Under the pieces are notes generated by a model. It was not told where the DNA came from. It was given only the letters and a program-made list of their open reading frames with translations, and searched no databases. A program made the translations under genes and the position numbers. DNA of 64,000 nt, from assembly GCA_018653605.1 (NCBI GenBank), contig JABHYY010000041.1, forward strand, positions 2,874 through 66,873. The letters run 5' to 3'. This stretch comes from an archaeon. GTDB lineage: Archaea > Nanobdellota > Nanobdellia > SCGC-AAA011-G17 > GW2011-AR17. Within the stretch, counting starts at the first letter, position 1. Every line of letters starts with the position of its first letter. This document shows, in pieces, positions 2,754-53,447 of the stretch.

Positions 2754-3611
2754 TCACTTCTTTTTTTCATTTTTCCAAACATCACCTGCTCTTTCAAAAG
2801 CCATTTTACCCTGATACTTGGAAGCCTTTACATAAATCTGGGTTGTTGCAATATCACTGTGACCTGCATAGGATTTTATCAAGAAAGAATCAACACCTTG
2901 ATCAGCCATATGCTGTAATCTTGTGTGTCTAAGCATGTGAGGCCTTAAATCACGCGAAATTAGCTCTTTCCCTAGCTTTTTTAGGTTATACCATACAGTG
3001 ATGGGCTTTATTTTGAAAATAAGCTCATTTGGGCTTGCAATTTGCTCTGATTTCAAATACTTTTTTAGAATTTTTGCTGTAGTTTTCTGAAAAAATACTG
3101 TTCTTGGTTTGTTTCCTTTACCTAAAAGGAACACTTCTCTCGTCGATAAATCTAGATCTTTTAACTTTAAATTTGTTAATTCTGAAACTCTTGCACCTGT
3201 ATCGTACAACATTCTAATTATCAAATTGTCTCTTAAATTTTCTATGTTCTCAACAAGATAGAGCAGTTCTTTTTTGGATAAAACTGATTTAGCTAGCTTT
3301 TGTTGATCTGTTAGGGCTGTTGAGGTGGTTCTTTCAAAGCTTACAATCTCTTTGATGTCTCTTTCTTCATAGCCTAAAGATTTCAAGTATAACCAAAGTG
3401 CATATCTTGCTATGGGATAGCCCCTTTTACGCAGGTAAGCTGCATACTTAAGTTTTAATTCTTTAACATTTTCACCTGGGAAAGACTCTGGGATGTGCTT
3501 AGCTAAGGTAAAGACTCCATGAATGGTCCTTTTTCCTAGTTTTTTTCCAGATTTCTCTCTGCTAAAATCTTTTAAGTAATGCTCGAATAGTTTTAGTTGG
3601 TGTGTTTCCAT
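2754..3611 (-). CDS. xerA: Tyrosine recombinase (XerA/XerCD-like integrase)
   Basis: The C-terminal catalytic region reads RPHMLRHTRLQHMADQG...LIKSYAGHSDIATTQIYVKA, which carries the R-H-R-Y signature. At 285 aa it is typical of archaeal XerA. Confidence 0.8.
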   Translation of the reverse strand: METHQLKLFEHYLKDFSREKSGKKLGKRTIHGVFTLAKHIPESFPGENVKELKLKYAAYLRKRGYPIARYALWLYLKSLGYEERDIKEIVSFERTTSTALTDQQKLAKSVLSKKELLYLVENIENLRDNLIIRMLYDTGARVSELTNLKLKDLDLSTREVFLLGKGNKPRTVFFQKTTAKILKKYLKSEQIASPNELIFKIKPITVWYNLKKLGKELISRDLRPHMLRHTRLQHMADQGVDSFLIKSYAGHSDIATTQIYVKASKYQGKMAFERAGDVWKNEKKK

Positions 3612-3742
3612 GGTAAGTGATTAAATTATAGATTGTATATAATTTAAAGCTTTCGGTTTAGCTTTTTGGAGTTTTATCGACGATAAAGGGTGTTTTTATA
3701 GGTTTTATTGTGTTTGTATTTTTTTAAGTTTTTTGAAAAAAA

Positions 3743-4201
3743 TTAATTTTTTGTTTTTAGAAAACCACCATGATAATACAAAAAATAAACCAATTCACCT
3801 TTGTAAAAAATTTCTTCTTTCCCTTCAAACATCTCTAATGTTCCATTGTTAACATCAACATATTTGAAGTCACCTTCTTCTAATTCGGAAGGGCCTCTGA
3901 ATGGCCTTTTTTCTTCAACTAAATTAAGAGCTTTTTTTAAGAAAGTGTAGATCTCTTTTGCTGGGACTTGTTCCCCAAATATCTTCCCATAGTAATTCAT
4001 TGCCCAGATTAATTGGTCTTCTTTCCATACAATTTCTTCACCTACAAAAGGATCAAATCCAAAATATCTATCCCTATATTTGAAAGTAGCTTCTTTGAAA
4101 ATTAACTCTTTTGATCCATCTTCCAATACTTTTTCTCCACCTTCTCCAGTACTAGCATATGTTGCTTTTTTTGCTTTAATTAAGAACTCTTTTAATTCCA
4201 T
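3743..4201 (-). CDS. DUF5680-like protein
   Basis: Motifs KKATYASTGEGG and WAMNYYGKIFGE plus PFRGPSE...GDFKY resemble the DUF5680 family as I remember it. Confidence 0.45.
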   Translation of the reverse strand: MELKEFLIKAKKATYASTGEGGEKVLEDGSKELIFKEATFKYRDRYFGFDPFVGEEIVWKEDQLIWAMNYYGKIFGEQVPAKEIYTFLKKALNLVEEKRPFRGPSELEEGDFKYVDVNNGTLEMFEGKEEIFYKGELVYFLYYHGGFLKTKN

Positions 4202-6549: not shown

Positions 6550-8217
6550 TTACATTTGCTCTACTGTTTCTATGCCTAATAACCACAAACAAGAGCCCAT
6601 TATATTGATGTAGGAATCAACAAGAATATATCTTGCTTTTTGTAACTCATCATTCTCTGCTTTTATTACAGGACATAGTTCATAGAACCTATTAAATGAA
6701 GAAGCAAGATTGTAAGCATATACTGTAATTGCATGAGGGCTATAAGTCTTTGCTGCTTTCTCTAATACAGAAGATAATTCACTAAACTCCCTTACTAGCC
6801 CTTGCTCTGCAGGATGTATTAAAAGATTATAATTGATCTTAGAACTCTTTTTTAATTGTTTTTTTATCTTCTTAGCCCTTACTAAAGAGTATTGTAAATA
6901 AGGACCTGTCTCACCCTCAAAAGATATTGATTCTTTAGGGTTAAATGTAAAATCCTTATGTGCTGAATGTTTTAATAAGTAAAATTTTAATGCAGATAAA
7001 GAAATCTTTCTAGCTAATTCTTCTGTTTTTGTCTTGCTTAATTTGTTTCTTTTTTCTACTTCTTTCCTTGCAAGATTAAACAAATCATCCATAAGGTCGT
7101 CAGCATCTACAACAGTACCTTCTCTAGATTTCATTTTACCTTCTGGAAGAGATACCATACCATAACTTAAATGGTAACAGTCTTTTGCATATTTGTAGCC
7201 TAGTAGATCTAATATTTTGAAAAGGACTTTGAAGTGATAATTCTGTTCGTTCCCAACTACATAAACAGATTTGTTGAATTTGAATTCATTGTATTTTAAA
7301 TTGGCAAGATAAAGGTCTTGAGTAATATATACAGAAGTTCCATCTGCCCTTAGAAGAATCTTTTCTCCTAACTCTCCTCCAAGGTCAATCAGAGTTGCAC
7401 CTGTATCATCTTTCTTAAACAAACCTTTTTTTGTGTTCTCAAGTACTATCTCCTTTCCTTTAAAGTAAGTTTTACTCTCATAATATTCTTTATCAAATTT
7501 TATCCCAAAAGTTTTGTATGTTTCTTTGAACCCTTCAAAAGCCCACTTGTTCATCTTTTTCCAAAGCTTGATTGTTTCTTTGTCTCCTAGTTCCCATTTC
7601 CTTAACATCTCTCTTGCTTCATCTTCTAGCTTTGGTTCTTTTTTTGCTTTTTGTGCAAATAAAACATAATAATCCCCTATGAAATGGTCTGATTTCTTGT
7701 TTGGTTCTTTGCCTTTACCCCACTTTTGGTAGGCTAACATAGACTTACATATATGTATCCCTCTATCATTGTTTAGGTTTAATCTTTTAATTTTGGAACC
7801 TTGAGATTCTAAAATTCTTGAAACTGATTCTCCTAGTGCCATATTCCTTAAGTGGCCTAGATGTAAAGGTTTGTTTGTGTTTGGAGATGGGAATTCTACA
7901 AGAGTTGTTTTCTTATTGTTATTTTTGAAAGCGTATTTCTCTTTGGTTGTTTGCTTTAGAATTGCTTCACTTCTTTTTGTTTTGTTAACAAAGAAGTTTA
8001 AGTATGGACCTGTTGCTTTGATCTCTTTAATATTAGTATTGGGCTTGATTTTTTTTGCTAAATCTTGTGCTATTTGCTGGGGAGCCTTTTTGTAAGCTTT
8101 AGCTAATGTAAAACAAGGTAAGGCATAATCTCCCATTTCTGGATTAGATGGAACTTCTAATAAATCTTCTTTTATTTCTTTTTTTAATAATTTTAATATT
8201 TCTTTTCTGAAATCCAT
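6550..8217 (-). CDS. argS: Arginine--tRNA ligase
   Basis: Class I HIGH-type motif PSPNTNKPLHLGHLRN, KMSKS-like GKMKSREGT, C-terminal DALR-like anticodon-binding region. 555 aa. Confidence 0.85.
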   Translation of the reverse strand: MDFRKEILKLLKKEIKEDLLEVPSNPEMGDYALPCFTLAKAYKKAPQQIAQDLAKKIKPNTNIKEIKATGPYLNFFVNKTKRSEAILKQTTKEKYAFKNNNKKTTLVEFPSPNTNKPLHLGHLRNMALGESVSRILESQGSKIKRLNLNNDRGIHICKSMLAYQKWGKGKEPNKKSDHFIGDYYVLFAQKAKKEPKLEDEAREMLRKWELGDKETIKLWKKMNKWAFEGFKETYKTFGIKFDKEYYESKTYFKGKEIVLENTKKGLFKKDDTGATLIDLGGELGEKILLRADGTSVYITQDLYLANLKYNEFKFNKSVYVVGNEQNYHFKVLFKILDLLGYKYAKDCYHLSYGMVSLPEGKMKSREGTVVDADDLMDDLFNLARKEVEKRNKLSKTKTEELARKISLSALKFYLLKHSAHKDFTFNPKESISFEGETGPYLQYSLVRAKKIKKQLKKSSKINYNLLIHPAEQGLVREFSELSSVLEKAAKTYSPHAITVYAYNLASSFNRFYELCPVIKAENDELQKARYILVDSYINIMGSCLWLLGIETVEQM

Positions 8218-8759: not shown

Positions 8760-9206
8760 TTAGGGGTTTTTCCAGTCGTCGACAAATATTTCATGATAAC
8801 CATCAGGGAGTTTTGTTATTATCCTCGATATGCCTGCGTTGATTATCATCCTTTTACAGAAGACACAGGGTTTTGATAAAGCAACTGTTTTGTTCTTAGT
8901 GTTCTCTCCATACATGTAAAGTGTTGAACCTATCATCTGTTCTCTTGGTGCGAAAATGATTGCGTTTGCTTCTGCATGAACTGATTTGCACAGTTCATAC
9001 TTTTCACCTGAAGGAATGTTTAAGTTTTCTCTTTCACAGAAACCAATGTCTATGCAGTGAGGGATGCCTGAAGGGGTTGATGCCCAACCTGTGCTTATGA
9101 TCTTATTATCATTTACTATGATTGTTCCAAACTTTCTTCTGATGCAAGTAGATTTTTGTGCTACTTCTCTTGCAATGTTTAGATAAAATTCATCTTTGTT
9201 TCCCAT
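8760..9206 (-). CDS. dCMP deaminase (cytidine/deoxycytidylate deaminase family)
   Basis: Zinc-ligand motifs HAEANAI and PCVFCKRMI (H-A-E ... P-C-x-x-C). 148 aa, typical of ComEB/dCMP deaminase. Confidence 0.8.
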   Translation of the reverse strand: MGNKDEFYLNIAREVAQKSTCIRRKFGTIIVNDNKIISTGWASTPSGIPHCIDIGFCERENLNIPSGEKYELCKSVHAEANAIIFAPREQMIGSTLYMYGENTKNKTVALSKPCVFCKRMIINAGISRIITKLPDGYHEIFVDDWKNP

Positions 9207-9267: not shown

Positions 9268-11562
9268 ATGAAATTTCCTGTTGTTGATGCTTTTTTGATT
9301 GAAAGGGGTTCTGGAAAGATTGGTGTTTGTTGTAACACTCTTTCTCCTGACTCTGTTGAGGTTGAGAGTGATGATGTTGCTGTGATTGGTAGATTGGTTG
9401 TAAATAGAGATGGGGCTGAAAGAATGATTATTAACTCTCTTGTTCATCCTCAGATTGAATATTTAATTCTGTTTGGTGAAGAGAGTGCAAGTTTTTGTCC
9501 GAGCACTAATCTATTGTTAGCTATTATGGATGGTTATGAAGATGGTAGAATTAAAGGAGGGAGAGGATTGGCTGCACTCTATCCTAACATAAGTGTTGAA
9601 TTGTTAGAAAAATTTAAAGAAAATGTTATTGTTTTACCTATGTTCTTGAATAAAGATACAAAAGATGTTGTTGGAAAGTATTTGGATTGGTTAAAAGGAA
9701 AGGTTGGTGATGAAATTTATAGTAAATTGGTTGAAATTAATTCTAAGAAAAAAATTTATTTTGATTCTTTGAATGAAATGGTTGGATTGATCGAAAAAGT
9801 TCCTGCTAAAAAAATTAAGGAATTTGCTTTAGATCCTAAAGAGTTTCAACATTTGCAACCACCTATTATAGTTTTGGAAGGGGATGATGAAATTCAAGAT
9901 GTTAAATTTAAAGTTGTTAGAGTTGATGATGGGATCTTGTTGAATATATATATAGGTGAATGGGTTTATTCTTTGAAAGGGAATGATAGTTTTTTGATGG
10001 CTTATTCCTTAAATGAATTTTTGAATAAAAAAAAAGTTAAGTTAAATGTTGTTGATTGTTTGTTAATTGGTACTGAATTGTCTCGTATTGAAGTTGAGAT
10101 TAGAAGTGGTATCAAAAGTGAAGGCTTTGTTCAATCTAATCTATCTGAAGGAGAGGTAATTCCATTGCTTAAGGAAACTGATTTGAAAGCTGATAAAGAG
10201 TATTATTATAAGGTTGGTTTGAAAGATGATAAGGTTTATGTACAAAGTTTAGCAAATGATAATTCTAAAGAGGCTTATGAGTATCGATGTGATAAATTGT
10301 GGCCTTTGGTTCAAAAGATTGCTGAAGATTCTAGGTTTGAAGATTATGAACAAAAAACTTTGCATTGTATTGATGTTGGGATTGAAATGGCTAGGGCTTG
10401 TATTGCTTTGAATAATGGAATGAACTATTTTCAAGACTTTAGGAATTTGTTTAAAGTGAATAAAGATAAACTGCCTTTATTGATTGTTAAAGGGAATAAT
10501 TTCTTGGGTACACATCAAAAGATAATTACTGAATTGTATACAAAAGGGTTAACTATGACTCACCCAGATAATCATAAAGGTACAATGAGGTCTGGTTGTG
10601 TTCTTGCTGTGTATAGAAATTCTGATAAGGTGTTTGATGTAATGCCTGATGTGTATGCTTCTGATAATCAAAGTACTTCTGAAATGAGAAGGTTGTATAG
10701 GGAACAGTTGTTGTCTGCTGATTGTGCTGGAACTTATACTTATGGTGAAAGAACTAGAAAGTATTTTGGGAAGGATCAGTTAGTGGAAGCTGTTAGGGTT
10801 CTGAAGGAAAAGAAAGTGTTTGTTGTTCAAAGGTTTGATTTTAATGAGGATATGGGTGTAAAGGAAGTTGATGGGAATTTGAAGTTTACTAAAGACCCTT
10901 GTTTAACTCATGATATTTATTTTGTGTTGGGTGGGAAGTTACATAGTCTTCATATAGCAAGAGCACATAATATTGTTAATGCTTATCCTGAGAACCTTTT
11001 TGGGTTGCATGATTCTTATGATTCATTTGTAGCTAAGGAATTAGGTGTGGAGTTAGGTGATTTGTTTATGTTGTCTAATAGAGCAAATATTTTACTTTTG
11101 ACTGAAGAGCAGAAGACTCGAAAGTTTATTGCTGAGGTTTCTAAAGAAATGAAAGATCTGGAAAGTCCTGTTGGCCCTAACAAAGAGTTTGGAAAAGGTA
11201 TTAGTTATGGTGAGTTTGTTATGGAAGAGGTTTTTGAAGTTGAACATAGTGATTTGGAAAGGTTGGAGAATTATAATGGTGAAGATATTATTGCGAGAGC
11301 TATTAAGTATTTGAAATTGAAAGGTAATTGTCATAATAATCCTATATTAGGTACTTATGATCCTAGGAAAGGTTCTTGTGGAAGGTTATTATTTTTTCAA
11401 GCTAATGAAAGAGGAGGAAAGTTGTTTGCAAGTGCTGTATTCTTAGGAAAGGGAGAGAAGGATAAAGAATTATGTGATTATATTGCAACAAAGTACAAAA
11501 AAGAGTTGGGTGTTGAATTAGGTGATGTCTTTATGTTTCACATTGGAGTTGAAAATGATTAA
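9268..11562 (+). CDS. Fusion protein: N-terminal MtrA-like (H4MPT methyltransferase subunit A homology) domain + central region + thymidylate synthase (ThyA/dCMP-hydroxymethylase) fold domain + C-terminal extension with partial duplication
   Basis: Residues about 10-130 align with the MtrA N-domain as recalled (IGVCCNTLS..., [36 protein letters not shown]..., [24 protein letters not shown]). Residues about 390-650 align with E. coli ThyA: YGERTRKY vs [35 protein letters not shown] vs [50 protein letters not shown] vs [35 protein letters not shown] vs CDLEVGDFVWTG. The catalytic Cys is conserved (codon 10900-10902). The ELGVELGD(L/V)FM element recurs at the extreme C-terminus. Confidence 0.6.
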   Translation: [764 protein letters not shown]

Positions 11563-12181
11563 AGTTATTGGATTTGATTTAGATCAGACTTTGTATCCAA
11601 AATCTTATCATATTGATGAAGCTATTCAGCTTTATATTTATGAAAAAATTTCTGAATTTAAAAAATGTAGTTTAGAAGAGGCTAAGGAATTGTTTTGTAG
11701 TTATTATCCTGAATTAAGTGGTAGTAAGGCTTTGATGAAGTTAGGTGTGCCCGATGCAAGGAATATTATACAAGAGGCTTTGGAGAGAGCTGATATTGAC
11801 AAATATTTAGAACCTAATGAAGAATTGAAAAAATTGTTGCTGAAATTGAAAGATAAGTATATTGTTGATTTGATTACTGGTTCTAATAAAGGAATTGCTT
11901 TGAAAAAGTTAGCAAGGTTAGATATTCCTATTGAATTGTTTAATGTTGCGATCACTGGAGAGATTGCTAAATCAGATGGAACGGCTTATAGAGAATGGTT
12001 AAAAAATTATGGTTATGATGCTTCTGAGTTTCTTTATATTGGAGATAGAAAAAGTACTGATGTTGATGTTCCTAAAGAATTAGGAATAAATTCTTTTTTG
12101 GTTAATGTGACTAAATTTGATGAAAATCTTGAAATTAAGCAATTTAAATCTATACTTGATATAGGCGAAGTTCTACTATAG
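11555..12181 (+). CDS. HAD-superfamily hydrolase (phosphatase)
   Basis: Starts MIKVIGFDLDQTLY, which carries HAD motif I DxDxT. The ATG at 11555 overlaps the upstream stop (ATGATTAA). The track start at 11522 is probably too far 5-prime. Confidence 0.7.
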   Translation: MIKVIGFDLDQTLYPKSYHIDEAIQLYIYEKISEFKKCSLEEAKELFCSYYPELSGSKALMKLGVPDARNIIQEALERADIDKYLEPNEELKKLLLKLKDKYIVDLITGSNKGIALKKLARLDIPIELFNVAITGEIAKSDGTAYREWLKNYGYDASEFLYIGDRKSTDVDVPKELGINSFLVNVTKFDENLEIKQFKSILDIGEVLL

Positions 12182-12196
12182 AAATGCTTTTAATAT

Positions 12197-13114
12197 TTGA
12201 AGTCAGAATTGTTTTATATGGCTCCTAATATTACTTTTGAAAAAATTCTTCCAAAAGAAGACATTCTTAAGATGCTTAATAATATTGTTTTTAGAGGAGT
12301 TTATGATTCTGAAGGAAACCCTTTGAGGCCTTATGAAGGAGCTAAATTTTCAATGGTCAAGATCCTACCACCTGAAAGACCTACATCTTTTCCTAGAATT
12401 ATGCATAATTTTCAGCAACATCCTTTGTTTACTGCACAGCCTACTATTTATGCTGATCAAACAGAGATTATGGATAATGTTGATAATTTTTTGAAAACAA
12501 TTGATAAGAGGATTTTTAATATTGGTTTTGAAGGTGTACAATATTATTGGGAAGGTAGGGGAAGATTTCATATTATCCCTCCAATTATTGAAAAACATGT
12601 TTACCCTTTGAAAGATGGTTTTTTAGATTTTGAAAAAATGTCTAAGAGATTTGAAGGAGCATTTGTTAAAGATGCTAAAGGTGAGTTGCATCCTTTGTTT
12701 GAAAAAGTAATTAGAGATTTTTATATTGACCATGGAAGTAAGGTCAGTTACATGAATGTATTTCATCATAATGCAGAATTGATTAATTATGGCTTGAGGT
12801 TTAATGGAAATCATGAATTTTTTATTATTTGTGATGGTAGCCATAGAATAGATTTTGCTTTAGAACATTTAGATGAACCAACTAATGCTATTGTTGTTGA
12901 ATCTGATAATCTTCTCCCATACTATGCTTTTCCTATGCCCTTTAGACCTGTAACAAGATTGACTAGTAAAAAAGCTGAAAGAATGTATCCAAGATTAGAA
13001 AGAGATAAAGTGCATCTTCTTAATTCTTTTATTAAAAAGGTGTTACATTATGATTGGGTTAAGGGAGGATTACATGTTAGCTCATTACGAAATAAAAAAT
13101 TTCAACCTTGGTAA
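12197..13114 (+). CDS. ParB/sulfiredoxin-like (DGxHR motif) domain protein
   Basis: HEFFIICDGSHRIDFALEHLDEPTNAIVVE at about 12826-12900 resembles the ParB-like nuclease/Srx motif (LIDGHHRxxAAxxLGLxxIPAIVV). The N-terminal 200 aa are unassigned. Confidence 0.5.
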   Translation: MKSELFYMAPNITFEKILPKEDILKMLNNIVFRGVYDSEGNPLRPYEGAKFSMVKILPPERPTSFPRIMHNFQQHPLFTAQPTIYADQTEIMDNVDNFLKTIDKRIFNIGFEGVQYYWEGRGRFHIIPPIIEKHVYPLKDGFLDFEKMSKRFEGAFVKDAKGELHPLFEKVIRDFYIDHGSKVSYMNVFHHNAELINYGLRFNGNHEFFIICDGSHRIDFALEHLDEPTNAIVVESDNLLPYYAFPMPFRPVTRLTSKKAERMYPRLERDKVHLLNSFIKKVLHYDWVKGGLHVSSLRNKKFQPW

Positions 13115-13928
13115 GTTAAAAGAAAGTTTGGATAGGTGTTGGTTGAATAAGGGTAAGTTTCATTCTAGTTCTGTTGCAATAACTTCAAATGGTGAATATT
13201 ATTCTGGGTTAATGGAATCAAAAACTCATTTGTTGGATATAAGTTCTGAGCAAGGTGCTTTGGTTTGTGCTGTATCTTGTAAAGATCCTCATGTTAAGGA
13301 AATTGTAACTTTGGTTGCTGGAGAGTTTAGTTTGAATCCTATTATTGTTAAGGTGTTATGTGATCATGTTCGAAGAACTGGAACTTATATTAAATATAAA
13401 GTTTACAATTTGGAAGGTTCTGAGTTGTTGAATTTGGATGTGATGGATACTTATTATAGGCCTGAGATTAAGGTGTTAGAAAAAATTAGTTCCTGGGAAA
13501 AAAGAGAGTGTAAAAAGAAGTATGATGAGTCAAAAGATTTGAAAGAGCAATTAAAAGAGTGTGCTCTTTTGGGTATGGAGACTCATTTTTCTTCAAGTAC
13601 AAAAACATGTTATGGGGGTTCTGTTTTATCTGGTGGTTGGATTTATTTTGGTGGAGTGTACAGTAGTTTTGATCATAGGATGAATTTGCATTCTGAGATG
13701 AGTGCTTTTTTTTGTGCTTTGGCTGATGGTTGTAAGGATGTTGAAGCTATTGGATTGGTTAGTACTAAATTTGTTTCAGAAGTTCCACAAATGTGTGGGT
13801 GTTGTAGGCAGTTTTTTTCTGAAATAAATAAAGAAGTTATGTTTTATGGATTTAGTATGGATGGTACAAAAGTGTTTGAGAAAAATTTGAAAGAGTATTT
13901 GCCTTCTGCTTGGGATTCTAATATTTAG
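13050..13928 (+). CDS. Tandem cytidine-deaminase-fold protein (degenerate N-terminal copy + intact C-terminal CDA domain)
   Basis: C-terminal half: [11 protein letters not shown] ... [13 protein letters not shown] ... EYLPSAW aligns with B. subtilis Cdd (CAERTAL ... PCGACRQ ... ELLPGAF). N-terminal half keeps the fold spacing ([21 protein letters not shown]) but lacks the Zn ligands. Overlaps the upstream gene by about 65 nt, so the start is uncertain. Confidence 0.6.
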
Positions 13929-16765: not shown

Positions 16766-16813
16766 ATTTACTATATGTGTTGTAATGGTATAAATAGTTT
16801 ACTGTGGTTTTTA

Positions 16814-17245
16814 TTGACCCCCTCACACCTTGATTGCGTATGGAGATTTGGTTTTGGTTTTGGTTGTTGTGTTTGTATTAATTTTATTAGTTGTTTCTTA
16901 TGGAAATAAGTTAAATTAAATAGGTTTTAGAGAGGGAAAAGAGGGTAAAATAATATAATATATTGCTTCATTATTATTATTATTATTATTATTCTAATTC
17001 TTTAATATATTTATAATAGAAGCTCTAATTCTCAAGAATTTTATTTTCTCTTTTTTATTTTATTTATATGTTTTTCTATATTATATTATATTATATTATA
17101 TTAGTATTAATATAATATATATATTGTATTGTGTTATCATTATATAGTTCTATTGGAAACAAAGGGGTTGATTTAAAAAGGGATGAATTTGGTGATCCAT
17201 TATTTATGTTGAAATGATTTCCATAGGAAATGATGGAGGGGGTGT
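16814..17245. promoter_or_regulatory. oriC: Predicted chromosomal replication origin (oriC): three ORB/G-string-like elements flanking an AT-rich DUE, adjacent to orc1/cdc6
   Basis: Element 1 at about 16814-16834 is inverted: its reverse complement reads atcaaggtgtgaGGGGGTcaa. Element 2 at about 17153-17171 is ttggaaacaaaGGGGTtga. Element 3 at about 17224-17245 is ataggaaatgatggaGGGGGTg. Between them, 16930-17140 is very AT-rich with (tta)n and (attat)n microsatellites. Genes to the left are all on the minus strand and genes to the right on the plus strand. orc1/cdc6 starts 52 bp downstream. Confidence 0.6.
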
Positions 17246-17296
17246 TTATTTTTAATAATGAAAATGCTTAAATAGTTTATTTGTGTATTTGGAGAT

Positions 17297-18508
17297 ATGG
17301 TAAAAAAAGGAGTTGATAGTTTTTTTGATGATTTTCTGAAAAAGGAACCTTTGTTTAAAGATAAGTCTGTATTGCAAGCTAATTATAGTCCAGATAATAT
17401 TCCTCATAGGGAAGAACATATTGAAAAGGTTGCTGGAATATTAGCTCCTGCTCTTAGAGTTGAAAAGCCATCTAATATGTTTATTTATGGGAAAACAGGT
17501 TCTGGCAAGACTTTAGTTGTTAAGCATGTAACTGAAAGTATGGAAAAGATTGCTGAAAAAAATGGTCTTGCTATAAAAATATTTTATTTGAATTGTAAAA
17601 TGAAAAGAGTTGCTGATACTGAATATAGGTTGATTGCTGAAATGGCTAGAGCTTTAGGTGTTGAAATACCTGCAACTGGTTTGCCTACAGATGAAGTTTA
17701 TAGAATTTTTGTTGATAATTTAGAGAAGAGAAAGATTTTGTTAGTTTTAATATTAGATGAGATTGATCAGTTGGTTTCAAAAGCAGGAGATCAAGTTTTG
17801 TATTCTTTAACTAGGTTTAATTCTGAATTAAAAAATAGTTTGATTTCAATTGTTGGAATAAGTAATGATTTAATGTTTACAAATTATTTAGATCCGAGAG
17901 TTAAAAGTTCTTTATCTGAAGAAGAGTTGGTTTTTCCTCCTTATAATGCAATTCAATTGCAAGCAATATTGAAAGAAAGAGCTAAAGATGCTTTTAGGGA
18001 AGGAGTTATTGTTGATGGGGTTTTAGAAAAGTGTGCTGCATATGCTGCAAGGGAACATGGTGATGCAAGAAGAGCTTTAGAATTATTAAGGGTTGCTGGT
18101 GAATTAACTGAAAGAAAAAATAGTAAACAAATTAGTATAGATATATTAGATGAAGCTGAAGAGAAGGTTGAAAGAGATAGAGTTCATGATATTATTTTAA
18201 GTCAACCTAAACAATCACAAATTACTTTGTTAGCAATATTTGAAGCTGTAAAACAAATTGGTAACAAACCTTTATTTACAGGGGATGTATATGAGTTGTA
18301 TAAAGAATTATGTTTTAAAGTAAAGATTAAACCTCTTACACAAAGGCGTATTTCGGATCTTGTTGCTGAGCTTGATATGCTTGGAATAATTCATGCAAAA
18401 GTTATTAGTAAAGGAAGATATGGTCGAACAAGACAGTTTGGGTTGGGTGTACCTCCTTCAACAGTTCCGAAACTTGAAAAGTTGTTGAAAGAGGTTTTAA
18501 ATGTCTGA
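17297..18508 (+). CDS. cdc6: Orc1/Cdc6 replication initiator
   Basis: Walker A IYGKTGSGKTLVVKHV, Walker B LVLILDEIDQL, AAA+ lid and C-terminal winged-helix. 403 aa. A TATA-like ttaaatag lies about 25 bp upstream of the ATG, suggesting a leaderless transcript. Confidence 0.9.
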   Translation: MVKKGVDSFFDDFLKKEPLFKDKSVLQANYSPDNIPHREEHIEKVAGILAPALRVEKPSNMFIYGKTGSGKTLVVKHVTESMEKIAEKNGLAIKIFYLNCKMKRVADTEYRLIAEMARALGVEIPATGLPTDEVYRIFVDNLEKRKILLVLILDEIDQLVSKAGDQVLYSLTRFNSELKNSLISIVGISNDLMFTNYLDPRVKSSLSEEELVFPPYNAIQLQAILKERAKDAFREGVIVDGVLEKCAAYAAREHGDARRALELLRVAGELTERKNSKQISIDILDEAEEKVERDRVHDIILSQPKQSQITLLAIFEAVKQIGNKPLFTGDVYELYKELCFKVKIKPLTQRRISDLVAELDMLGIIHAKVISKGRYGRTRQFGLGVPPSTVPKLEKLLKEVLNV

Positions 18509-19964
18509 AATTAAAAAATTAGTTGGTTTTTTGTTTGAAAAGAATTACATAGTTACACCTGAAGTTTTGAAAAGTGTTCCGAGTGATTTTAATTTTGATA
18601 TTTTTTATGAAAATGTTGGTTCTACTATGAAAAGGCAAGATAAAGGGGTAGTTTTTGATAAAAGTTTGTTGTTTGTTGAGGAAGATGAAGTAAAAACTAA
18701 TTTGAAAATTGTTTGGAATTATGATAAAGAACCTGGTAAAGTTGAAGTAAAAGATTTTGTAACTTATTATAAGAATAGATATAATCAATTAAAAAAAATT
18801 TTAATGCAAAGAGAAGGGTTACAAGGTTGTGTTTCAATTTCAAGGGCTTTAAGAAAAGGTTCTGATGAAGTTGTTTCAATAATTGGTTTTGTTTATAATG
18901 TTGGAATTACAAAGTCAGGTCATATTATGTTGGAGTTAGAAGATCCTACTGGAAAAATAAAAGTTTTGTTGAGTAATAAAAATAAAGAGCTAATGGAACT
19001 TGGTAAGGAGATTGTTCACGACGAGGTTATTGGTGTTAGTGGAGGAACAGGGAGTGATATTATTTTTGCAAGAGATGTTTATTTACCAGATATTGCTTTG
19101 AAAGAATATAAAAAATGTGCTGATGATGTTAATGTAGTTTTTGCAGCCGATATGCATATTGGTAGTACTTTATTTATTCCTGAAGATTTTGAAAGGTTTG
19201 TTAAGTGGTTGAATATGGAATATGGTGATGAAGAACAAAAAGAGATAGCAAAAAAAGTGAAGTATTTATTTTTTGCTGGAGATATTGTTGATGGTGTTGG
19301 AATTTATCCTGGGCATGAGAAGGAAACAAATATTACAGATATTGTTGAACAGTATAATGTTTGTTTTGATTATATTTCTAGAATTAGAAAAGATATTAAG
19401 ATTGTTATTTGTGGTGGGAATCATGATGCTTTAAGATTGTCTGAACCTCAACCTGCTTTGAATAGAGAGTTTGCAGCAAAGTTGTATAGTTTGCCTAATG
19501 TACATATGGTAACAAATCCTTCTATAATAAATATTCATGCTGTTGATGGATTTGTTGGGTTTGATGTTTTATTATATCATGGAATGGGTTTTGATTATTA
19601 TGTTAACAATGTTGATTATATAAGAAATAATGGTGGATATGATAGAGCTGATTTAATGATGGAATTTTTGTTAAAGAAAAGGCACCTTTGTCCGACGCAC
19701 ATTGCAGGTTTGTCAATGCCTGATATAGAGAGTGATCCTTTAGTTATTGAACAAGTTCCTGACTTTTTTGTATCAGGACATATGCATCATGATGTGTTGG
19801 TTGGTAATTATAAAAATGTTTGTTTAGTTGGGTGTGGTAGTTTTCAAAGCATGTCTTCTTTTCAAGAAAAAATGGGACATGAAAACATAATCCCTTCAAA
19901 AGTTCCAATTATTAATCTTAAAACAAGAAAAATAAAAGTTTTAGATTTTAGTGAAACAGACTGA
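18501..19964 (+). CDS. polB: DNA polymerase II (PolD) small subunit DP1
   Basis: Calcineurin-like/Mre11-type phosphoesterase motifs (FAADMHIGS, FFAGDIVDG, ICGGNHDA) after an N-terminal OB-like region. Overlaps the orc1 stop by 8 nt, as in the operon form. Confidence 0.85.
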   Translation: MSEIKKLVGFLFEKNYIVTPEVLKSVPSDFNFDIFYENVGSTMKRQDKGVVFDKSLLFVEEDEVKTNLKIVWNYDKEPGKVEVKDFVTYYKNRYNQLKKILMQREGLQGCVSISRALRKGSDEVVSIIGFVYNVGITKSGHIMLELEDPTGKIKVLLSNKNKELMELGKEIVHDEVIGVSGGTGSDIIFARDVYLPDIALKEYKKCADDVNVVFAADMHIGSTLFIPEDFERFVKWLNMEYGDEEQKEIAKKVKYLFFAGDIVDGVGIYPGHEKETNITDIVEQYNVCFDYISRIRKDIKIVICGGNHDALRLSEPQPALNREFAAKLYSLPNVHMVTNPSIINIHAVDGFVGFDVLLYHGMGFDYYVNNVDYIRNNGGYDRADLMMEFLLKKRHLCPTHIAGLSMPDIESDPLVIEQVPDFFVSGHMHHDVLVGNYKNVCLVGCGSFQSMSSFQEKMGHENIIPSKVPIINLKTRKIKVLDFSETD

Positions 19965-43504: not shown

Positions 43505-45928
43505 ATGGATCCAAATAATTTAACACCTGCAATGAGACAGTATGCTGATCTTAAACAGAAGTATGCTGATTGTGTAATTATGTTTAGAATGGGTGATTTT
43601 TATGAAATGTTTTATGAAGATGCTAAGACTGCATCAAAAGAGTTAGAGATTACTTTGACATCTAGGGGAAAGGGTGAGAAAAAAGCTCCTTTGGCTGGAA
43701 TACCTCATCATGCTTTGGAACAGTATTTAGGTAGGCTTGTTAAGAAAGGTTATAAAGTTGCAATTTGCGAACAGTTAGAAGATCCTAAGTTAGCAAAGGG
43801 TTTGGTTAAACGAGGTGTTGTTCGAGTTGTTACACCTGGAACACTTATTGGGTCTGGTGATCTTGATGCTAGTTCTAATAATTATTTGATGTCAGTGTTT
43901 GCAAATGGTGATGAGTATGCTGCAAGTTTTTGTGATGTTTCAACTGGAGAGTTTTTTGTTTTTTCTGGTGGTTTTGATTTGGTTAAGGATGAGGTTTTGA
44001 GGTTTAGACCTGCTGAGTGTGTTTTGCCTGAAAGTTTGTTGGTTGATCAGGAGTTGGTTAAGAATTTGAAAAGGTTGGGTGTGTTTGTGACTGATCATAG
44101 TGATAGGTTTTTTGGTTTTGATTATGCAAAGTCTACTTTGTTAAGACATTTTAAAGTTCTTGGTTTGGATGGGTTTGGAGTTTCTAATGATATTGAGGTA
44201 AAAGTTGCTGGTGGGTTGTTGAATTATGTTTTGTCTACTCAAATGAATGATTTGTTGCACATTAAAAGTTTGAAAAAAGTTGTTAAGCAAGATAGAATGT
44301 TTTTGGATGCTGTTGCAATTAAGAATTTGGAGTTGGTTGAGGGTGTTTCTGAGAAAGGAAGTTTGTTTTATGTTTTGAATAGGACTTGTACTAACATGGG
44401 TGTTAGGTTGTTAAAGAAATGGTTGAAAAGTCCTTTAATGAATAGAGTTAAGATTGAAGAGAGGTATGATGCTGTTGAGTTTTTTGTTAAAAATTTAATT
44501 GTTAGGGGTGATTTGCAGAATGTTTTGAAAGGTGTTGGTGATGTTGAAAGGTTGGTTGGTAAGGTTGGTTATGGTAATTGTGGTGGTCGTGATTTGGTTG
44601 CTTTGAAAAATTCTCTTTTGAATGTTCAAAAAATTAATTTTGATTCTGGGTTGTTGAAGGAGTTGAGTTGTTTTGGTGATTTTCAAGGTGTTATTGATAT
44701 TGTTTCTGAGTCAATAAAAGATGATTGTGCTGTTTCTATTAGGGAAGGTGGAGTGATTAAGTTAGATTATAATTCTAGGTTGAAAGAGTTACATGATATT
44801 AAGTTTGGTGGGAAAAAGTTTATTTCTCGTTTAGAGGCTCAAGAGAGGGAGAGGACTGGGATTAAGAATCTTCGTATTGGTTTTAATCGTGTTTTTGGAT
44901 ATTATATTGATGTTTCTAAGTCTAATTTGCATCTTGTTCCTAAAGATTATATTCGAAAACAAACTCTTGTTAATAATGAGAGGTATGTTACTGAAGATTT
45001 GAAGAAAGAGGAAGAGAAAATCTTGACTGCTGAAGAGAAGATTAAAAATTTGGAGTATGAATTGTTTATGGCTGTTGTTGAAAAGATTAAGGATTATATT
45101 TCTGTTCTTCAGGATGTTGCTTCTAAAGTTGCTGAGTTGGATGTTCTTTTGAGTTTTGCTTTTGTTAGTGTTGAGAATAATTATGTTCGTCCTGTTTTAG
45201 ATGATTCTGATGTTTTGGAGATTAAAGATGGTAGGCATGCTGTTGTTGAGCTTGAAGAGGATTATGTTCCTAATGATACTAGTTTGAATGTTGGTGAGGT
45301 TATGATTATTACTGGGCCTAACTTTGCTGGTAAAAGTTGTTATATGAGACAGGTTGCTTTGATTGTTATTATGGCACAGGTTGGTTGTTTTGTTCCTGGT
45401 GTTGTTAAAATGGGGTTGGTTGATAGAGTTTTTACTAGGGTTGGTGCGCAAGATGATTTGTTTTCTGGGAAAAGTACTTTTATGGTTGAAATGGAAGAGG
45501 TTGCTAATATTTTGAATAATGCTTCTTCTAAAAGTTTGATAGTGTTTGATGAGGTTGGAAGGGGAACTTCTACTTATGATGGTGTTTCAATTGCATGGGC
45601 TGTTGTTGAGTATGTTTATAATAAAGTTAAAGCTAAAACTATGTTTGCAACTCATTATCATGTTTTGAATTCTATGGCTAGTGATTTAGATGGTGTTAAG
45701 AATTATAATATTTCTGTGAAAGAAGAGAAGGATGAGATTGTGTTTTTGCGAAAGTTGGTTGCTGGTGGTACTGATAAGAGTTTTGGTGTTTATGTTGCTA
45801 AGTTGGCTGGTGTTCCTTTGGATGTTGTTTCTCGTGCTCGGGAGATTCAGGAGAAGCTTGAGTCAAAAGATAAGTTTTCTGGTCGGGTTGGTGGGAAGAT
45901 GTTGGATAAGCAGAAGAGTTTGTTTTAA
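43505..45928 (+). CDS. mutS: DNA mismatch repair protein MutS (bacterial type)
   Basis: N-terminal mismatch-binding domain TPAMRQYADLKQKYADCVIMFRMGDFYEMFYEDA. ATPase domain with GPNFAGKS, STFMVEMEE, FDEVGRGTSTYDG and FATHYH. Confidence 0.9.
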   Translation: MDPNNLTPAMRQYADLKQKYADCVIMFRMGDFYEMFYEDAKTASKELEITLTSRGKGEKKAPLAGIPHHALEQYLGRLVKKGYKVAICEQLEDPKLAKGLVKRGVVRVVTPGTLIGSGDLDASSNNYLMSVFANGDEYAASFCDVSTGEFFVFSGGFDLVKDEVLRFRPAECVLPESLLVDQELVKNLKRLGVFVTDHSDRFFGFDYAKSTLLRHFKVLGLDGFGVSNDIEVKVAGGLLNYVLSTQMNDLLHIKSLKKVVKQDRMFLDAVAIKNLELVEGVSEKGSLFYVLNRTCTNMGVRLLKKWLKSPLMNRVKIEERYDAVEFFVKNLIVRGDLQNVLKGVGDVERLVGKVGYGNCGGRDLVALKNSLLNVQKINFDSGLLKELSCFGDFQGVIDIVSESIKDDCAVSIREGGVIKLDYNSRLKELHDIKFGGKKFISRLEAQERERTGIKNLRIGFNRVFGYYIDVSKSNLHLVPKDYIRKQTLVNNERYVTEDLKKEEEKILTAEEKIKNLEYELFMAVVEKIKDYISVLQDVASKVAELDVLLSFAFVSVENNYVRPVLDDSDVLEIKDGRHAVVELEEDYVPNDTSLNVGEVMIITGPNFAGKSCYMRQVALIVIMAQVGCFVPGVVKMGLVDRVFTRVGAQDDLFSGKSTFMVEMEEVANILNNASSKSLIVFDEVGRGTSTYDGVSIAWAVVEYVYNKVKAKTMFATHYHVLNSMASDLDGVKNYNISVKEEKDEIVFLRKLVAGGTDKSFGVYVAKLAGVPLDVVSRAREIQEKLESKDKFSGRVGGKMLDKQKSLF

Positions 45929-48929: not shown

Positions 48930-50579
48930 ATGATAAAAGTTCTAGATGAAAAGCTTGTAAACAAGATTGCTGCTGGTGAAGTTATTGAAAAACCTGTGAA
49001 TGTGGTAAAGGAGTTGGTAGAAAACAGTTTGGATTCTGGTGCTGATGATATTTTAATTGAAGTTAAGGAAAATTTGATCAAAATTGAAGATAATGGTTGT
49101 GGAATGAGTAAAGAGGATTTGGTTCTTTGTATGAAAAGGCATGCTACTAGTAAGATTAGTTCTTTTGATGATTTGAATGGAGTTAGGAGTATGGGTTTTA
49201 GAGGTGAGGCTTTGAGTAGTATTGCTGCTGTTTCTGATATTAGTATTGTTTCTAAACAAAGTGGTGCGATGGAAGGTGGGATGGTGCATGTTGAGTTTGG
49301 TTTTCTTAGAGAGAGTAAAACTGTTGGTTCTTCTGAAGGTACTAAAATTGAAGTTAGGGATTTGTTTCATAACACTCCTGTTAGAAAAAAGTTTTTGGAT
49401 ACAAAAGAGAGTGAGAGGATTGTTGAGTGTGTGATGAAGATTGCTTTAGGGAATGAAGGAGTTAGGTTTAAGTTGGTTAAAGATGATAAAATTATTTTTG
49501 ATGTGTACAAAGGAAGTTTGTTAGATAGGGTTGTTGGGTTGTATGGTTCTGATTTTGTTAAGGATTTGGTTGAAATTGAGTTTGAAGATAAAGGGATTAG
49601 TATTTCTGGTTATGTTTCAAAACCTTCTTTGTTAAGAAAGGATAAAAGTATGCAAAGTTTTTTTGTGAACAATAGGTTGGTGGATGGTGCTGAAGCTTCT
49701 ATTGCTTTGTATGATGCTTACAAAAGTTTGTTGTTTGTGAATAGGCATCCTGTTGTTGTTTTGCATTTGAAAATGGAGGGTGTTGATGTTAATGTGCATC
49801 CTACTAAGAGAGAGATTCGGTTTGAAAATCCTAATTTGGTGTATAAGGTTATGTTTGATGCGATTCGAAGTGTGTTTCAGGAACAAGAGATGGTTTTTGA
49901 TGTGCAGGATAAGTTTGATTTTGGTGAGCCTGAGAAAAAAGTTGTTGAAGAGAGAGTTGTTGAGGTTAGTAAGCAACAGGGTTTGGTTGAAAGTTCTGAA
50001 GAAGGGTTTGTTCGTTTGCCTAAGTTGAAGTTGTTGGGTTGTGTTGGAAAAACTTATTGGGTTGCTGAAAATTCTGAAGGGTTGTTGTTGATTGATCAGC
50101 ATGTTGTGCAGGAAAGAATTTTGTACGAAAAGTTTATGAAACAGTTTGTTGATAATTCAGTTGAGGTGCAAGAGTTGTTGAATGGTGAGGTTATGGATCT
50201 TGATCCAAAGAATGCTTGTGTTCTAAGAGGGAATTTGGAGAGGCTTGCTGAGTTTGGGTTTAAGATTGAAGAGTTTGGTGGTGATAGTTTTTTAATTAGG
50301 TCTGTGCCAGTTATTTTTGGTGATGTTTTTGGTAAAGAGTTGTTGTTGGATCTTTTTGTTGATATGAAAAGTGTTGTAGATTATAAAGAGAAGGTTGTGA
50401 CAAGAATGGCTTGTCGCGCTTCTATTAAAGCTGGGGATGAGGTGTCTGAATATCGGCTGATGAGTTTATTAAAAGAGTTGGATAAGTGTGAGTTGCCTTA
50501 CACTTGTCCACATGGTCGGCCAATTATTATTAAACTTTCAATGTCTGATTTGGAAAAGATGTTTAGAAGGAAAGCTTAG
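48930..50579 (+). CDS. mutL: DNA mismatch repair protein MutL
   Basis: GHKL ATPase N-terminus IAAGEVIEKPVNVVKELVENSLDSGADDILIEV...DNGCGM. The C-terminal dimerisation region has a CPHGRP-type motif. Confidence 0.85.
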   Translation: MIKVLDEKLVNKIAAGEVIEKPVNVVKELVENSLDSGADDILIEVKENLIKIEDNGCGMSKEDLVLCMKRHATSKISSFDDLNGVRSMGFRGEALSSIAAVSDISIVSKQSGAMEGGMVHVEFGFLRESKTVGSSEGTKIEVRDLFHNTPVRKKFLDTKESERIVECVMKIALGNEGVRFKLVKDDKIIFDVYKGSLLDRVVGLYGSDFVKDLVEIEFEDKGISISGYVSKPSLLRKDKSMQSFFVNNRLVDGAEASIALYDAYKSLLFVNRHPVVVLHLKMEGVDVNVHPTKREIRFENPNLVYKVMFDAIRSVFQEQEMVFDVQDKFDFGEPEKKVVEERVVEVSKQQGLVESSEEGFVRLPKLKLLGCVGKTYWVAENSEGLLLIDQHVVQERILYEKFMKQFVDNSVEVQELLNGEVMDLDPKNACVLRGNLERLAEFGFKIEEFGGDSFLIRSVPVIFGDVFGKELLLDLFVDMKSVVDYKEKVVTRMACRASIKAGDEVSEYRLMSLLKELDKCELPYTCPHGRPIIIKLSMSDLEKMFRRKA

Positions 50580-51102: not shown

Positions 51103-51696
51103 ATGAAATTACTAGTTGTAGGGGATATTCATGGAGATAAAGGTTTAGCTAAAGAGCTCTCTGAAAAAGCTGAGAAAGAGGGTGTTGATTTTGTTGTTTT
51201 ATGTGGTGATGTTTCTGAATCTGATGAAAATTTTGAGGGTATTGTTGGTTTGTTTAAACAAAAAGTGTTTTTGGTTCCTGGGAATCATGATTCTGATGCT
51301 ACTGTTGATTTTTTGGCTGAGTTGTATAAAGGTAAGAATTTGGAAGGGTATGGGTATAAGCTTGGTGATGTTGGATTGTTTGGTTCTGGTTCTGTTGTTC
51401 AAGGTATTTTTCAAAAACCTGAAGCTGAAATTTTTGATATGTTAAGAAAAGGTGCTGAGTATGTTAAAGATTGTAAAACTAAAATTTTGGTGAGTCACAC
51501 TCATCCTGTTGGTACAAAAATGGAAAGGTTTTCTGAGTTTGTGCATGGAAGTGAAGGTTTGAGAAAAGCTATTGATGTTTTGAAACCAAATATGGTTTTT
51601 TGTTCGCATGTGCATGAAGCTGAAGGTATTGAAGAGATGATTGGTGAGACAAGAGTGATTAATGTTGGTAGGAAAGGTAAGATTATTGAGGTTTAG
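51103..51696 (+). CDS. Metallophosphoesterase (calcineurin-like)
   Basis: Motifs VVGDIHGD, LCGDV, VPGNHD, SHTHP and CSHVHE. Confidence 0.7.
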   Translation: MKLLVVGDIHGDKGLAKELSEKAEKEGVDFVVLCGDVSESDENFEGIVGLFKQKVFLVPGNHDSDATVDFLAELYKGKNLEGYGYKLGDVGLFGSGSVVQGIFQKPEAEIFDMLRKGAEYVKDCKTKILVSHTHPVGTKMERFSEFVHGSEGLRKAIDVLKPNMVFCSHVHEAEGIEEMIGETRVINVGRKGKIIEV

Positions 51697-51699
51697 AAA

Positions 51700-52548: not shown

Positions 52549-52549
52549 A

Positions 52550-53446: not shown

Positions 53447-53447
53447 A

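Follow-up and report, generated by a model that had tools for sequence, protein, structure and literature searches.

A ParB/Srx-fold protein of the ParB-CE family in a presumed thymidylate-supply gene cluster of DPANN archaea and CPR bacteria

The archaeal contig JABHYY010000041.1 (GenBank assembly GCA_018653605.1) contains, in the stretch of 64,000 nucleotides that was analyzed here (positions 2,874 to 66,873; hereafter called the window and numbered from its own first letter), a gene for a ParB-like protein of 298 residues (12218..13114, + strand). According to profile comparisons, this protein is a divergent member of the Pfam family PF24392 ("ParB CE domain") that amounts to a full-length ParB-CE domain with an insertion. 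Its gene is part of a four-gene cluster that additionally encodes a HAD-superfamily phosphatase, a tandem protein of the cytidine deaminase (CDA) fold, and a presumed thymidylate synthase. Taken together, the data point to a stand-alone enzyme of the ParB/sulfiredoxin (Srx) fold that would be a fixed part of a thymidylate-supply module. Catalytic turnover of nucleotides or nucleosides is suggested by the invariant residues E125, D206, H209, and R210 in combination with the gene context. The reaction that is tentatively favored, with a confidence that stays somewhat short of even, is the trimming of dCTP/dCDP or dUTP/dUDP to the 5′-monophosphate, which the protein would perform together with the HAD enzyme, feeding the deaminase and the synthase. 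The first-pass annotation of the gene had proposed a nucleotide-directed role within a nucleotide-metabolism operon, which is supported by the fold, the obligate gene linkage, and the neighbors from the thymidylate pathway.

Fold, family, and conserved residues

The open reading frame (ORF) of the ParB-like gene on the + strand spans 12197-13114 when it is counted from a TTG codon at 12197. The ATG at 12218 is most likely the start, since the resulting product of 298 residues is 100% identical to the database protein P0001 and the homologs share this start. The closest relatives of the protein are encoded in metagenome-assembled genomes of Woesearchaeota, Nanoarchaeia, and Iainarchaeum. The window itself is an AT-rich segment of an archaeal chromosome (~31% GC) that encodes Orc1/Cdc6, the PolD small subunit, LonB, and Cdc48. 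Two antisense ORFs (12365-12598 and 12623-12844) were dismissed as low-complexity by-products of the AT-rich sequence. A scan for promoters and terminators gave signals at chance level only, and no Rfam family reached its gathering score in the whole 64 kb, where a dedicated tRNA scan was not made.

The fold assignment proceeds through the ParB-CE family. The window protein alone matches PF24392 with 19.5 bits (E 1e-3, profile positions 100-141 only), which is below the gathering cut-off of 23 bits; the profile is matched by 20 out of 20 aligned orthologs, with a best E value of 1.5e-8. When the profile of the window family is aligned to canonical ParB-CE by hhalign, a probability of 99.8% is reached (E 1.4e-27, 194 columns). 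When 1.84 billion representatives were searched exhaustively with the profile, just 52 proteins were returned, and those among them that are not orthologs are bona fide ParB-CE proteins. The AlphaFold2 (AF2) model of a canonical ParB-CE protein (pLDDT 92) was compared to the PDB with Foldseek, and its top 47 matches are all of the ParB/Srx fold or close structural relatives thereof, including human Srx, pNOB8 ParB-N, Atu1540, ParB-CDP, Noc, SerK, SbnI, KorB, and PadC (probability up to 1.00). By this transitivity at the profile level, from the window family through ParB-CE to the solved structures, the ParB/Srx fold of the window protein is established at the level of profiles and models, and the ParB/Srx-type domain that the first-pass annotation had recognized is borne out via the ParB-CE branch. 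It had recommended a comparison to PF02195, Srx, and DndB; the family to be assigned is PF24392 and none of these three, and PF02195 is unmatched by the window protein in the Pfam scan. When PDB sequences were searched, either with the protein or with the profiles A1 and A2, the matches were at chance level only (thymidylate kinase, E 0.03; GppA, E 0.018).

Structure prediction, which had likewise been recommended, gives a split result. AF2 modeled the window protein confidently (pLDDT 86.4, pTM 0.86) as a single compact domain with a β-insert, and the model of the canonical family finds Srx and ParB, but the model of the window protein itself has no significant Foldseek neighbor in the PDB, which is probably due to the insertion of ~64 residues.

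Fifteen residues are invariant over three ParB-CE subfamilies that share a mutual identity of just 20-27%, namely Q74, P121, P122, E125, D206, G207, H209, R210, P234, Y235, Y236, A237, K274, L276, and R291. This pattern suggests an active site. Among 20 orthologs of the window protein, 55 positions are invariant. The first conserved motif is QPTIY (residues 74-78, 12437..12451, + strand), whose Q74 is invariant in all ParB-CE subfamilies in the alignment and which is, in our reading of it, the positional counterpart of the N-terminal QPR box of ParB. The PPIIE motif (residues 121-125, 12578..12592, + strand) harbors the universally invariant P121, P122, and E125 and is, judged from the alignments and the hhalign register with Spo0J, the counterpart of "QPLIVR" in ParB and of "PPIDV" in Srx. 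E125 might coordinate a metal or act as the catalytic base. The PPIIE strand is followed by the β-rich insertion (~64 residues, residues ~133-196, 12614..12805, + strand), which was delimited by the hhalign gap, the AF2 secondary structure, and its invariant columns. It is specific to the DPANN/CPR (candidate phyla radiation) subfamily and carries invariant residues of its own (G134, D152, H158, D171, F182, N185, N190, and Y191).

Behind the insertion lies the C-D-G-S-H-R loop (residues 205-210, 12830..12847, + strand), which is contained in the peptide quoted in the first-pass annotation, IICDGSHRIDFALEHLDEPTNAIVVE (26 residues, 203-228, nt 12824-12901). The alignments and the AF2 model identify it as the GxxR/"DGxHR" loop that binds phosphate in the ParB/Srx fold. 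In the model it is placed between a strand (197-206) and a helix (208-217) that leads into a further strand (222-228). Its alignment with GERR (Spo0J) and GCHR (Srx) is in the expected register, at hhalign scores that are not significant for ParB-CE against these single sequences (E 0.1 and 0.065, respectively). C205, D206, G207, H209, and R210 are invariant in the 20 orthologs, and D206, G207, H209, and R210 are invariant in all three ParB-CE subfamilies as well; the GxxR motif that had been suggested as a check is present as an invariant G207-S-H-R210. The PYYAFP motif (residues 234-239, 12917..12934, + strand), in which P234, Y235, Y236, and A237 are invariant in the alignments of all ParB-CE subfamilies, stands in place of Box III of ParB.

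A protein acting on DNA, be it a partition protein, a nuclease, or a DndB/DpdB-like DNA-modification ATPase, would have the fold and the DGxHR-type loop in common with the window protein, and nothing else. Neither a helix-turn-helix (HTH) nor a C-terminal dimerization domain is found, Box III is missing, and Pfam and NCBIfam give no match besides ParB-CE. ParA is absent from the ORFs of the 64-kb window, and a tblastn search with Soj gave no match in 126 sequences (1.67 Mb of related loci). The dnd and dpd genes were not noticed in the annotated neighborhoods, which contain thymidylate-pathway and housekeeping genes, although no search aimed at them was made. The probability of such a function is considered negligible. 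The first-pass annotation was right in that the protein does not appear to serve chromosome partitioning and has no parA next to it, and the DNA-directed step that it had entertained as an alternative is unsupported.

The gene cluster and its variants

In the window, the genes are ordered as ComEB-type dCMP deaminase (- strand), MtrA-like/PterinBD/ThyA-like fusion, HAD, ParB-like gene, and tandem CDA-like gene (CDA2). The fusion protein (764 residues, 9268..11562, + strand) contains MtrA-like, PterinBD-DUF4346, and ThyA-like parts that are matched by Pfam (MtrA, 2e-6; PterinBD, 1.6e-4), by the NCBIfam thymidylate synthase model TIGR03283 (8e-15), and by MtrA in the PDB (4e-5). It is presumed to be the thymidylate synthase of the cluster. 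Its motifs DPCLTHD, ARAHN..AYPEN, and ERTR are conserved in 44 orthologs and correspond, in our reading, to the catalytic Cys146, the Arg166/Asn177 pair, and the Arg21-type phosphate binder of ThyA. The fusion is 41-53% identical across DPANN and CPR organisms and may represent a class of thymidylate synthase with a hitherto undescribed architecture. In the alignment to solved MtrA, the histidine of the "QGH" stretch, which we take to be the corrinoid ligand, is aligned with a phenylalanine of the window fusion.

The HAD phosphatase (11522..12181, + strand; Pfam HAD_2, 4.9e-11) is of the C1-cap type with an intact DxDxT motif, and its probable start is the ATG at 11555. It matches the pyrimidine 5′-nucleotidase model TIGR01993 below the cut-off (2e-14), is located immediately upstream of the ParB-like gene, and is kept in every variant cluster. 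CDA2 (292 residues, 13050..13928, + strand) is matched by NCBIfam cytidine-deaminase models below their cut-offs (E 6e-7 to 2e-3), and its gene overlaps the 3′ end of the ParB-like gene by 65 nt. The H-x-E and C-x-x-C motifs with the zinc-binding and catalytic residues are retained in the C-terminal half only, as seen in 49 orthologs. The ParB-like gene had been described as lying between a phosphatase and deaminases, which holds for the HAD gene upstream; what had been taken for deaminases, on the downstream side, is a single protein composed of two CDA-fold halves. The ComEB-type dCMP deaminase gene (8760..9206, - strand; PF00383, 3e-15; TIGR02571 ComEB, 5e-13) is divergent from the four-gene cluster.

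The cluster was surveyed in 54 species-representative genomes and 55 metagenome loci, and the counts given here cover 99 loci that were not de-duplicated. The cluster occurs in DPANN archaea and in CPR bacteria (Paceibacteria, Kaiserbacteria, Zambryskibacteria, and Nomurabacteria among them), in which the usual order on one strand is ParB-like gene, CDA2, fusion, and HAD. The order in the window (fusion, HAD, ParB-like gene, CDA2) is related to that of essentially all other loci (L001-L121) by a circular permutation, which leaves the ParB-like/CDA2 and fusion/HAD junctions intact. CDA2 adjoins the ParB-like gene in 94/99 loci, and the HAD gene is present in 81/99. The co-occurrence with the ThyA-fold fusion, which had been proposed as a test, is near-absolute (90/99). 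Cases in which one of the three partners is missing are mostly explained by contig ends. An apparently divergent variant (L122) turned out to be a frameshifted contig of the ordinary cluster.

Apart from the synthase itself, all canonical steps of dTTP synthesis appear beside the cluster: dUTPase (33/99 loci), serine hydroxymethyltransferase (SHMT, 28/99), dCMP deaminase (8/99), dCTP deaminase (DCD, 3/99), Ndk (3/99), and Tmk (2/99 by tblastn with E. coli Tmk; a third, in L018, by Pfam only). ThyA, dihydrofolate reductase (DHFR), and Tdk are each found in 0/99 loci, Tdk being absent from all 126 sequences searched, and ThyX was not found in the ~99 loci apart from L018. Arginyl-tRNA synthetase (ArgRS) is encoded no more than a few kb away from the cluster in 46/99 loci and in the window (6550-8217, - strand); it recurs in the CPR loci L019-L058, and it also adjoins a simpler three-gene operon in a Bryobacteraceae contig (L124:1-1933). 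In two CPR proteins, P0122 (L064:8001-9869) and P0125, an extra helical N-terminal domain of ~300 residues is fused to the ParB-like module. This extension has no Pfam or PDB match, and an HD motif that was suspected in it was rejected, as it is not conserved. In L064, a gene of the nucleoside 2-deoxyribosyltransferase family follows the HAD gene and a NUDIX gene is located upstream.

Several loci deviate from the four-gene arrangement. L062 encodes a ThyA-like protein, a HAD, a single protein in which ParB-CE is fused N-terminally to a dCMP-deaminase domain, and a thioredoxin, whereas L066-L068 encode ParB-CE, HAD, an MtrA/PterinBD fusion, and a dCTP deaminase. In L065, the gene that follows the canonical ParB-CE gene starts with an MtrA-like domain. 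Both free-living bacteria that were sampled, a member of the Bryobacteraceae (L124) and Frankia (L125), possess an overlapping three-gene operon of MtrA-like/ThyA-like/PterinBD, HAD, and ParB-CE without any deaminase. The Frankia operon adjoins canonical thyA, folA, HIT, and dCMP-deaminase-like genes; it is preceded by a gene for a TIR + WD40 protein of >1690 residues (L125:1-4326) and followed by one for a 1071-residue protein whose only recognizable part is a C-terminal ParB-CE domain (L125:7679-10894, E 4.5e-8). Across these architectures the type of deaminase varies (tandem CDA, ComEB-type, DCD), ParB-CE and HAD are constant, and ParB-CE precedes the deaminase in fusion and operon alike.

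The nanoarchaeotal locus L018 lacks the fusion. The genes for a long ThyX, Tmk, and HAD form an operon there that runs divergently from the ParB-like gene, CDA2, and NrdR. Since ThyX replaces the fusion here, the fusion should be functionally equivalent to a thymidylate synthase, and the trio of ParB-like protein, deaminase, and HAD therefore appears to have a generic role in the pathway, the simplest being the supply of dUMP. The displacement also makes it unlikely that the ParB-like protein services the pterin/MtrA-like cofactor of the fusion. A function as dTMP kinase was rejected, as a canonical Tmk is encoded directly beside the gene in L034, L094, and L018. The NrdR-type regulator of L018 (11596-12084; zinc ribbon and ATP-cone) directly follows the ParB-like/CDA2 pair and ties it to the regulation of dNTP supply.

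An antivirus "conflict" system, in which the ParB-CE protein would be a nucleotide-depleting effector, could account for the word "(catalytic) effector" in the Pfam and UniRef names, for the TIR-WD40 giant and the second ParB-CE protein that flank the Frankia operon, and for the sporadic distribution of the canonical ParB-CE family. Searches of viral contigs, phage genomes, and plasmid collections revealed no homolog of the ParB-like protein, however, and no PADLOC model matched, so that a mobile or defensive origin is unsupported. Neighbors of the cluster in the reduced genomes of DPANN and CPR organisms are ribosomal, tRNA-synthetase, and dTTP-pathway genes; it lacks a sensor or toxin partner and fills the place of the missing thymidylate synthase, being exchanged with ThyX in L018. 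A defensive function is thus regarded as very improbable. The identity of ~50% that the cluster retains between archaea and bacteria is a further point against it, and points to inter-domain transfer of the whole module among episymbionts.

Possible roles in the supply of dUMP

The proposed enzyme would act on a deoxycytidine or deoxyuridine di- or triphosphate; catalysis, substrate, and order of steps are all deduced from sequence and gene context. In the favored reaction sequence, the HAD protein would take off the γ-phosphate (dCTP to dCDP or dUTP to dUDP), and the ParB-like enzyme would subsequently take off the β-phosphate, yielding dCMP or dUMP. The G-x-H-R loop, E125, and D206 would bind and cleave the phosphate chain of the pyrimidine deoxynucleotide. 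The deaminase encoded by the overlapping gene, CDA2, would then convert dCMP to dUMP, which would be methylated to dTMP by the synthase and passed on to Tmk and Ndk. Phosphate trimming is preferred because it gives HAD and ParB-CE sequential, nonfutile roles in every architecture. Specific ParB versions are reportedly predicted to attack nucleotide phosphate linkages in work by Nicastro et al. from 2023, which is presumably the source of the ParB-CE definition, and the UniRef name of the canonical family, "ParB-like catalytic effector domain-containing protein," was also counted in favor of a hydrolase. Furthermore, the PUA-Calcineurin-CE-HAD system provides an experimental precedent for such a division of labor, in which the HAD makes dNDP from dNTP and its partner makes dNMP from dNDP (PMC12871103).

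Several observations weigh against phosphate trimming or the fold on which it builds. The small-molecule enzymes of the fold whose chemistry is known (Srx, SerK, and SbnI) are phosphotransferases and not NDP/NTP hydrolases. The glutamate of the ParB GERR motif is catalytic for CTP hydrolysis, and its position is occupied by Ser or Met in ParB-CE proteins. A dUTPase, DCD, or ComEB-type dCMP deaminase often adjoins the cluster, which renders a route from dCTP via dCMP to dUMP partly redundant. CDA2 bears a C-G-x-C-R-Q motif of the cytidine-deaminase type, and the best sub-threshold matches of the HAD are pyrimidine 5′-nucleotidases; both fit a route at the nucleoside level better. Finally, the Foldseek search with the model of the window protein itself, as mentioned above, returned nothing significant.

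Such a nucleoside-level route is the main rival explanation, albeit an unlikely one in our estimate. The ParB-fold protein would be an ATP-dependent pyrimidine deoxynucleoside kinase in a salvage pathway to dUMP: the HAD would dephosphorylate dCMP to deoxycytidine, the CDA-like protein would deaminate it to deoxyuridine, and the kinase would phosphorylate the latter to dUMP for the synthase. Srx, SerK, and SbnI, to which the canonical ParB-CE model shows structural similarity, are O-phosphotransferases, and the best family matches of HAD and CDA2, although sub-threshold, are the pyrimidine 5′-nucleotidases and cytidine deaminases that this route needs. None of its three steps is duplicated by a canonical neighbor (Dut, DCD, ComEB, Tmk, Ndk, or SHMT), and Tdk, as stated above, is not encoded in any of the sequences searched. 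DPANN and CPR organisms live by salvage, which was also counted in its favor. In Trypanosoma brucei, dUMP derives mainly from cytidine deaminase and thymidine kinase despite an active dUTPase (PMC6686228). However, a kinase would run into a futile cycle with the obligate nucleotidase in L062, where the ParB-CE domain is fused to a ComEB-type dCMP deaminase, and in L124 and L125, which lack a deaminase. The order of genes and domains, with ParB-CE always ahead of the deaminase and never after it, does not agree with a kinase acting last, and CDA2 appears, from our own reading of the conservation, to lack the N-x-E ribose-binding motif of nucleoside deaminases.

Alternatively, the protein could bind dCTP, dTTP, or CTP as a noncatalytic or slow-turnover sensor and gate a complex of deaminase, HAD, and synthase, thereby supplying the allosteric control that is built into classical dCMP deaminases. 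The founding members of the fold are CTP-dependent switches, and others bind ATP or GTP (PMC12704722). Classical dCMP deaminase is activated by dCTP (PMC12184417). A physical complex is suggested by the gene overlap and by the ParB-CE::deaminase fusion, and NrdR, which follows the ParB-like/CDA2 pair in L018, is a nucleotide-sensing regulator. The ParB-like protein has no dimerization or clamp-forming domain, however, the invariant acidic residues E125 and D206 beside the phosphate loop look catalytic, and 55 invariant positions in 20 orthologs are above what binding alone usually needs. A sensor is accordingly held to be improbable, less so than an antivirus effector, and phosphate trimming is retained as the tentative assignment.

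A wider proposal, which is doubtful as a whole, combines several statements. The ParB-fold protein would be the obligatory catalytic subunit of a hitherto unrecognized, self-contained module that leads from cytosine deoxynucleotides to dTMP. This module would replace ThyA or ThyX (together with DHFR) in many DPANN archaea and CPR bacteria. Its synthase would represent a third architectural class, in which a ThyA-fold core is equipped with its own pterin-binding and MtrA-like domains, and the ParB/Srx fold would perform NDP/NTP trimming or deoxynucleoside phosphorylation, a chemistry never demonstrated for the fold. With a module of this kind, the simpler operon of ThyA-like protein, HAD, and ParB-CE in free-living bacteria would be the ancestral form.

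The domain family itself is already contained in Pfam; new are the insertion, the restriction to DPANN and CPR organisms, and the coupling to a deaminase. The body of literature that was searched contains no description of the four-gene cluster, although Nicastro et al. 2023 may already mention the ThyA-like/HAD context. The deaminase or thymidylate context is unmentioned in a 2025 survey of the ParB-CTPase fold that is based on PF02195. The ParB/Srx fold, otherwise known for partition clamps, sulfiredoxin, and serine kinases, is now being re-evaluated as a general NTP module, to which the family would add a housekeeping metabolic enzyme. As the cluster occupies the expected thymidylate-synthase step in genome-reduced symbionts and is exchangeable with ThyX in one lineage, it offers a handle on dTMP synthesis in DPANN and CPR symbionts and on what may be a new type of thymidylate synthase. 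The cluster components are all small, soluble proteins.

Elsewhere in the window, an AT-rich intergenic stretch (within 16766-19964; GC 0.275 in the 16-18 kb bin) precedes the genes for Orc1/Cdc6 (17297-18508) and the PolD small subunit (18501-19964) and is likely a replication origin at ~3-4 kb from the cluster. Very large ORFs of 2130, 2613, 609 (M6 peptidase-like), and 1320 residues occupy 20084-40310 on the + strand with a strongly positive GC skew; the 2130-residue product is rich in Cys, Trp, Asp, and Asn and looks secreted. MutS (with all five domains) and MutL, both of the bacterial type, as well as a second protein that matches MutS domain V only are encoded in this DPANN archaeon (43505-45928, 48930-50579, and 59131-60561). 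A metallophosphoesterase gene is followed by three tandem Ser/Thr protein-kinase genes at 51103-54200, and a tyrosine recombinase of the phage-integrase family is found beside a DUF5680 protein at 2754-4201, which may be the edge of an integrated element.

Comparison with known systems

The closest relatives outside of the DPANN/CPR subfamily are the canonical PF24392 ParB-CE proteins of ~200 residues from Bryobacteraceae, Magnetococcales, Frankia, and Kentron symbionts. They share full-length homology, the same invariant residues, and the same partners (a ThyA-like/PterinBD protein and HAD) with the window family, which differs in its β-rich insertion of ~64 residues, its restriction to DPANN and CPR organisms, and its constant pairing with an overlapping tandem-CDA gene.

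Of the solved structures, sulfiredoxin (1xw3, 3cyi) matches the canonical ParB-CE model best (Foldseek probability 1.0, TM 0.60 on the target). It likewise is a single-domain ParB fold that does not bind DNA, with a G-x-H-R phosphate loop and a PP(I/V)x(D/E) strand. In contrast to Srx, the catalytic cysteine of GCHR is absent, its position being taken by Ser208 in the window family and by Met in canonical ParB-CE, and there is no peroxiredoxin context; Srx has ~110 ordered residues (1xw3 chain) compared to the 298 residues of the window protein. SerK (5x0b) and SbnI (5uje) are ParB-fold enzymes that phosphorylate a small-molecule hydroxyl and match the canonical model with probabilities of 0.89-0.97. 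They have no detectable sequence similarity to the window protein, which lacks the C-terminal domain of SerK, and they belong to cysteine or siderophore metabolism rather than to pyrimidine metabolism. The CTPase clamps ParB, Noc, and KorB have the N-terminal ParB/Srx fold and the GxxR phosphate loop in the same register, but the window protein, without HTH, dimerization domain, Box III, ParA, and parS, is not a clamp.

The PUA-Calcineurin-CE-HAD system (PMC12871103) is proposed as a functional analogy, as it also combines an obligate HAD partner with a "CE" phosphoesterase. Its effector has a calcineurin fold that is unrelated to ParB, and it constitutes an inducible abortive-infection system with a PUA sensor, whereas the window cluster appears to be a housekeeping one that is coupled to a deaminase and a thymidylate synthase.

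The bacterial anti-phage Zn-dependent dCTP deaminases and vertebrate CDADC1 resemble the pair of ParB-like protein and CDA2 in that a CDA-fold deaminase is combined with an extra nucleotide-handling module. The fusion partner of the bacterial enzymes is a P-loop domain. In the present cluster, the extra module has the ParB fold and is encoded by a gene of its own that overlaps the deaminase gene, and no sequence relation exists beyond the CDA fold. In CDADC1, the active site is located in the domain CDD2, where the E400A substitution abolishes activity, which implies two deaminase domains with the C-terminal one being active, as in CDA2.

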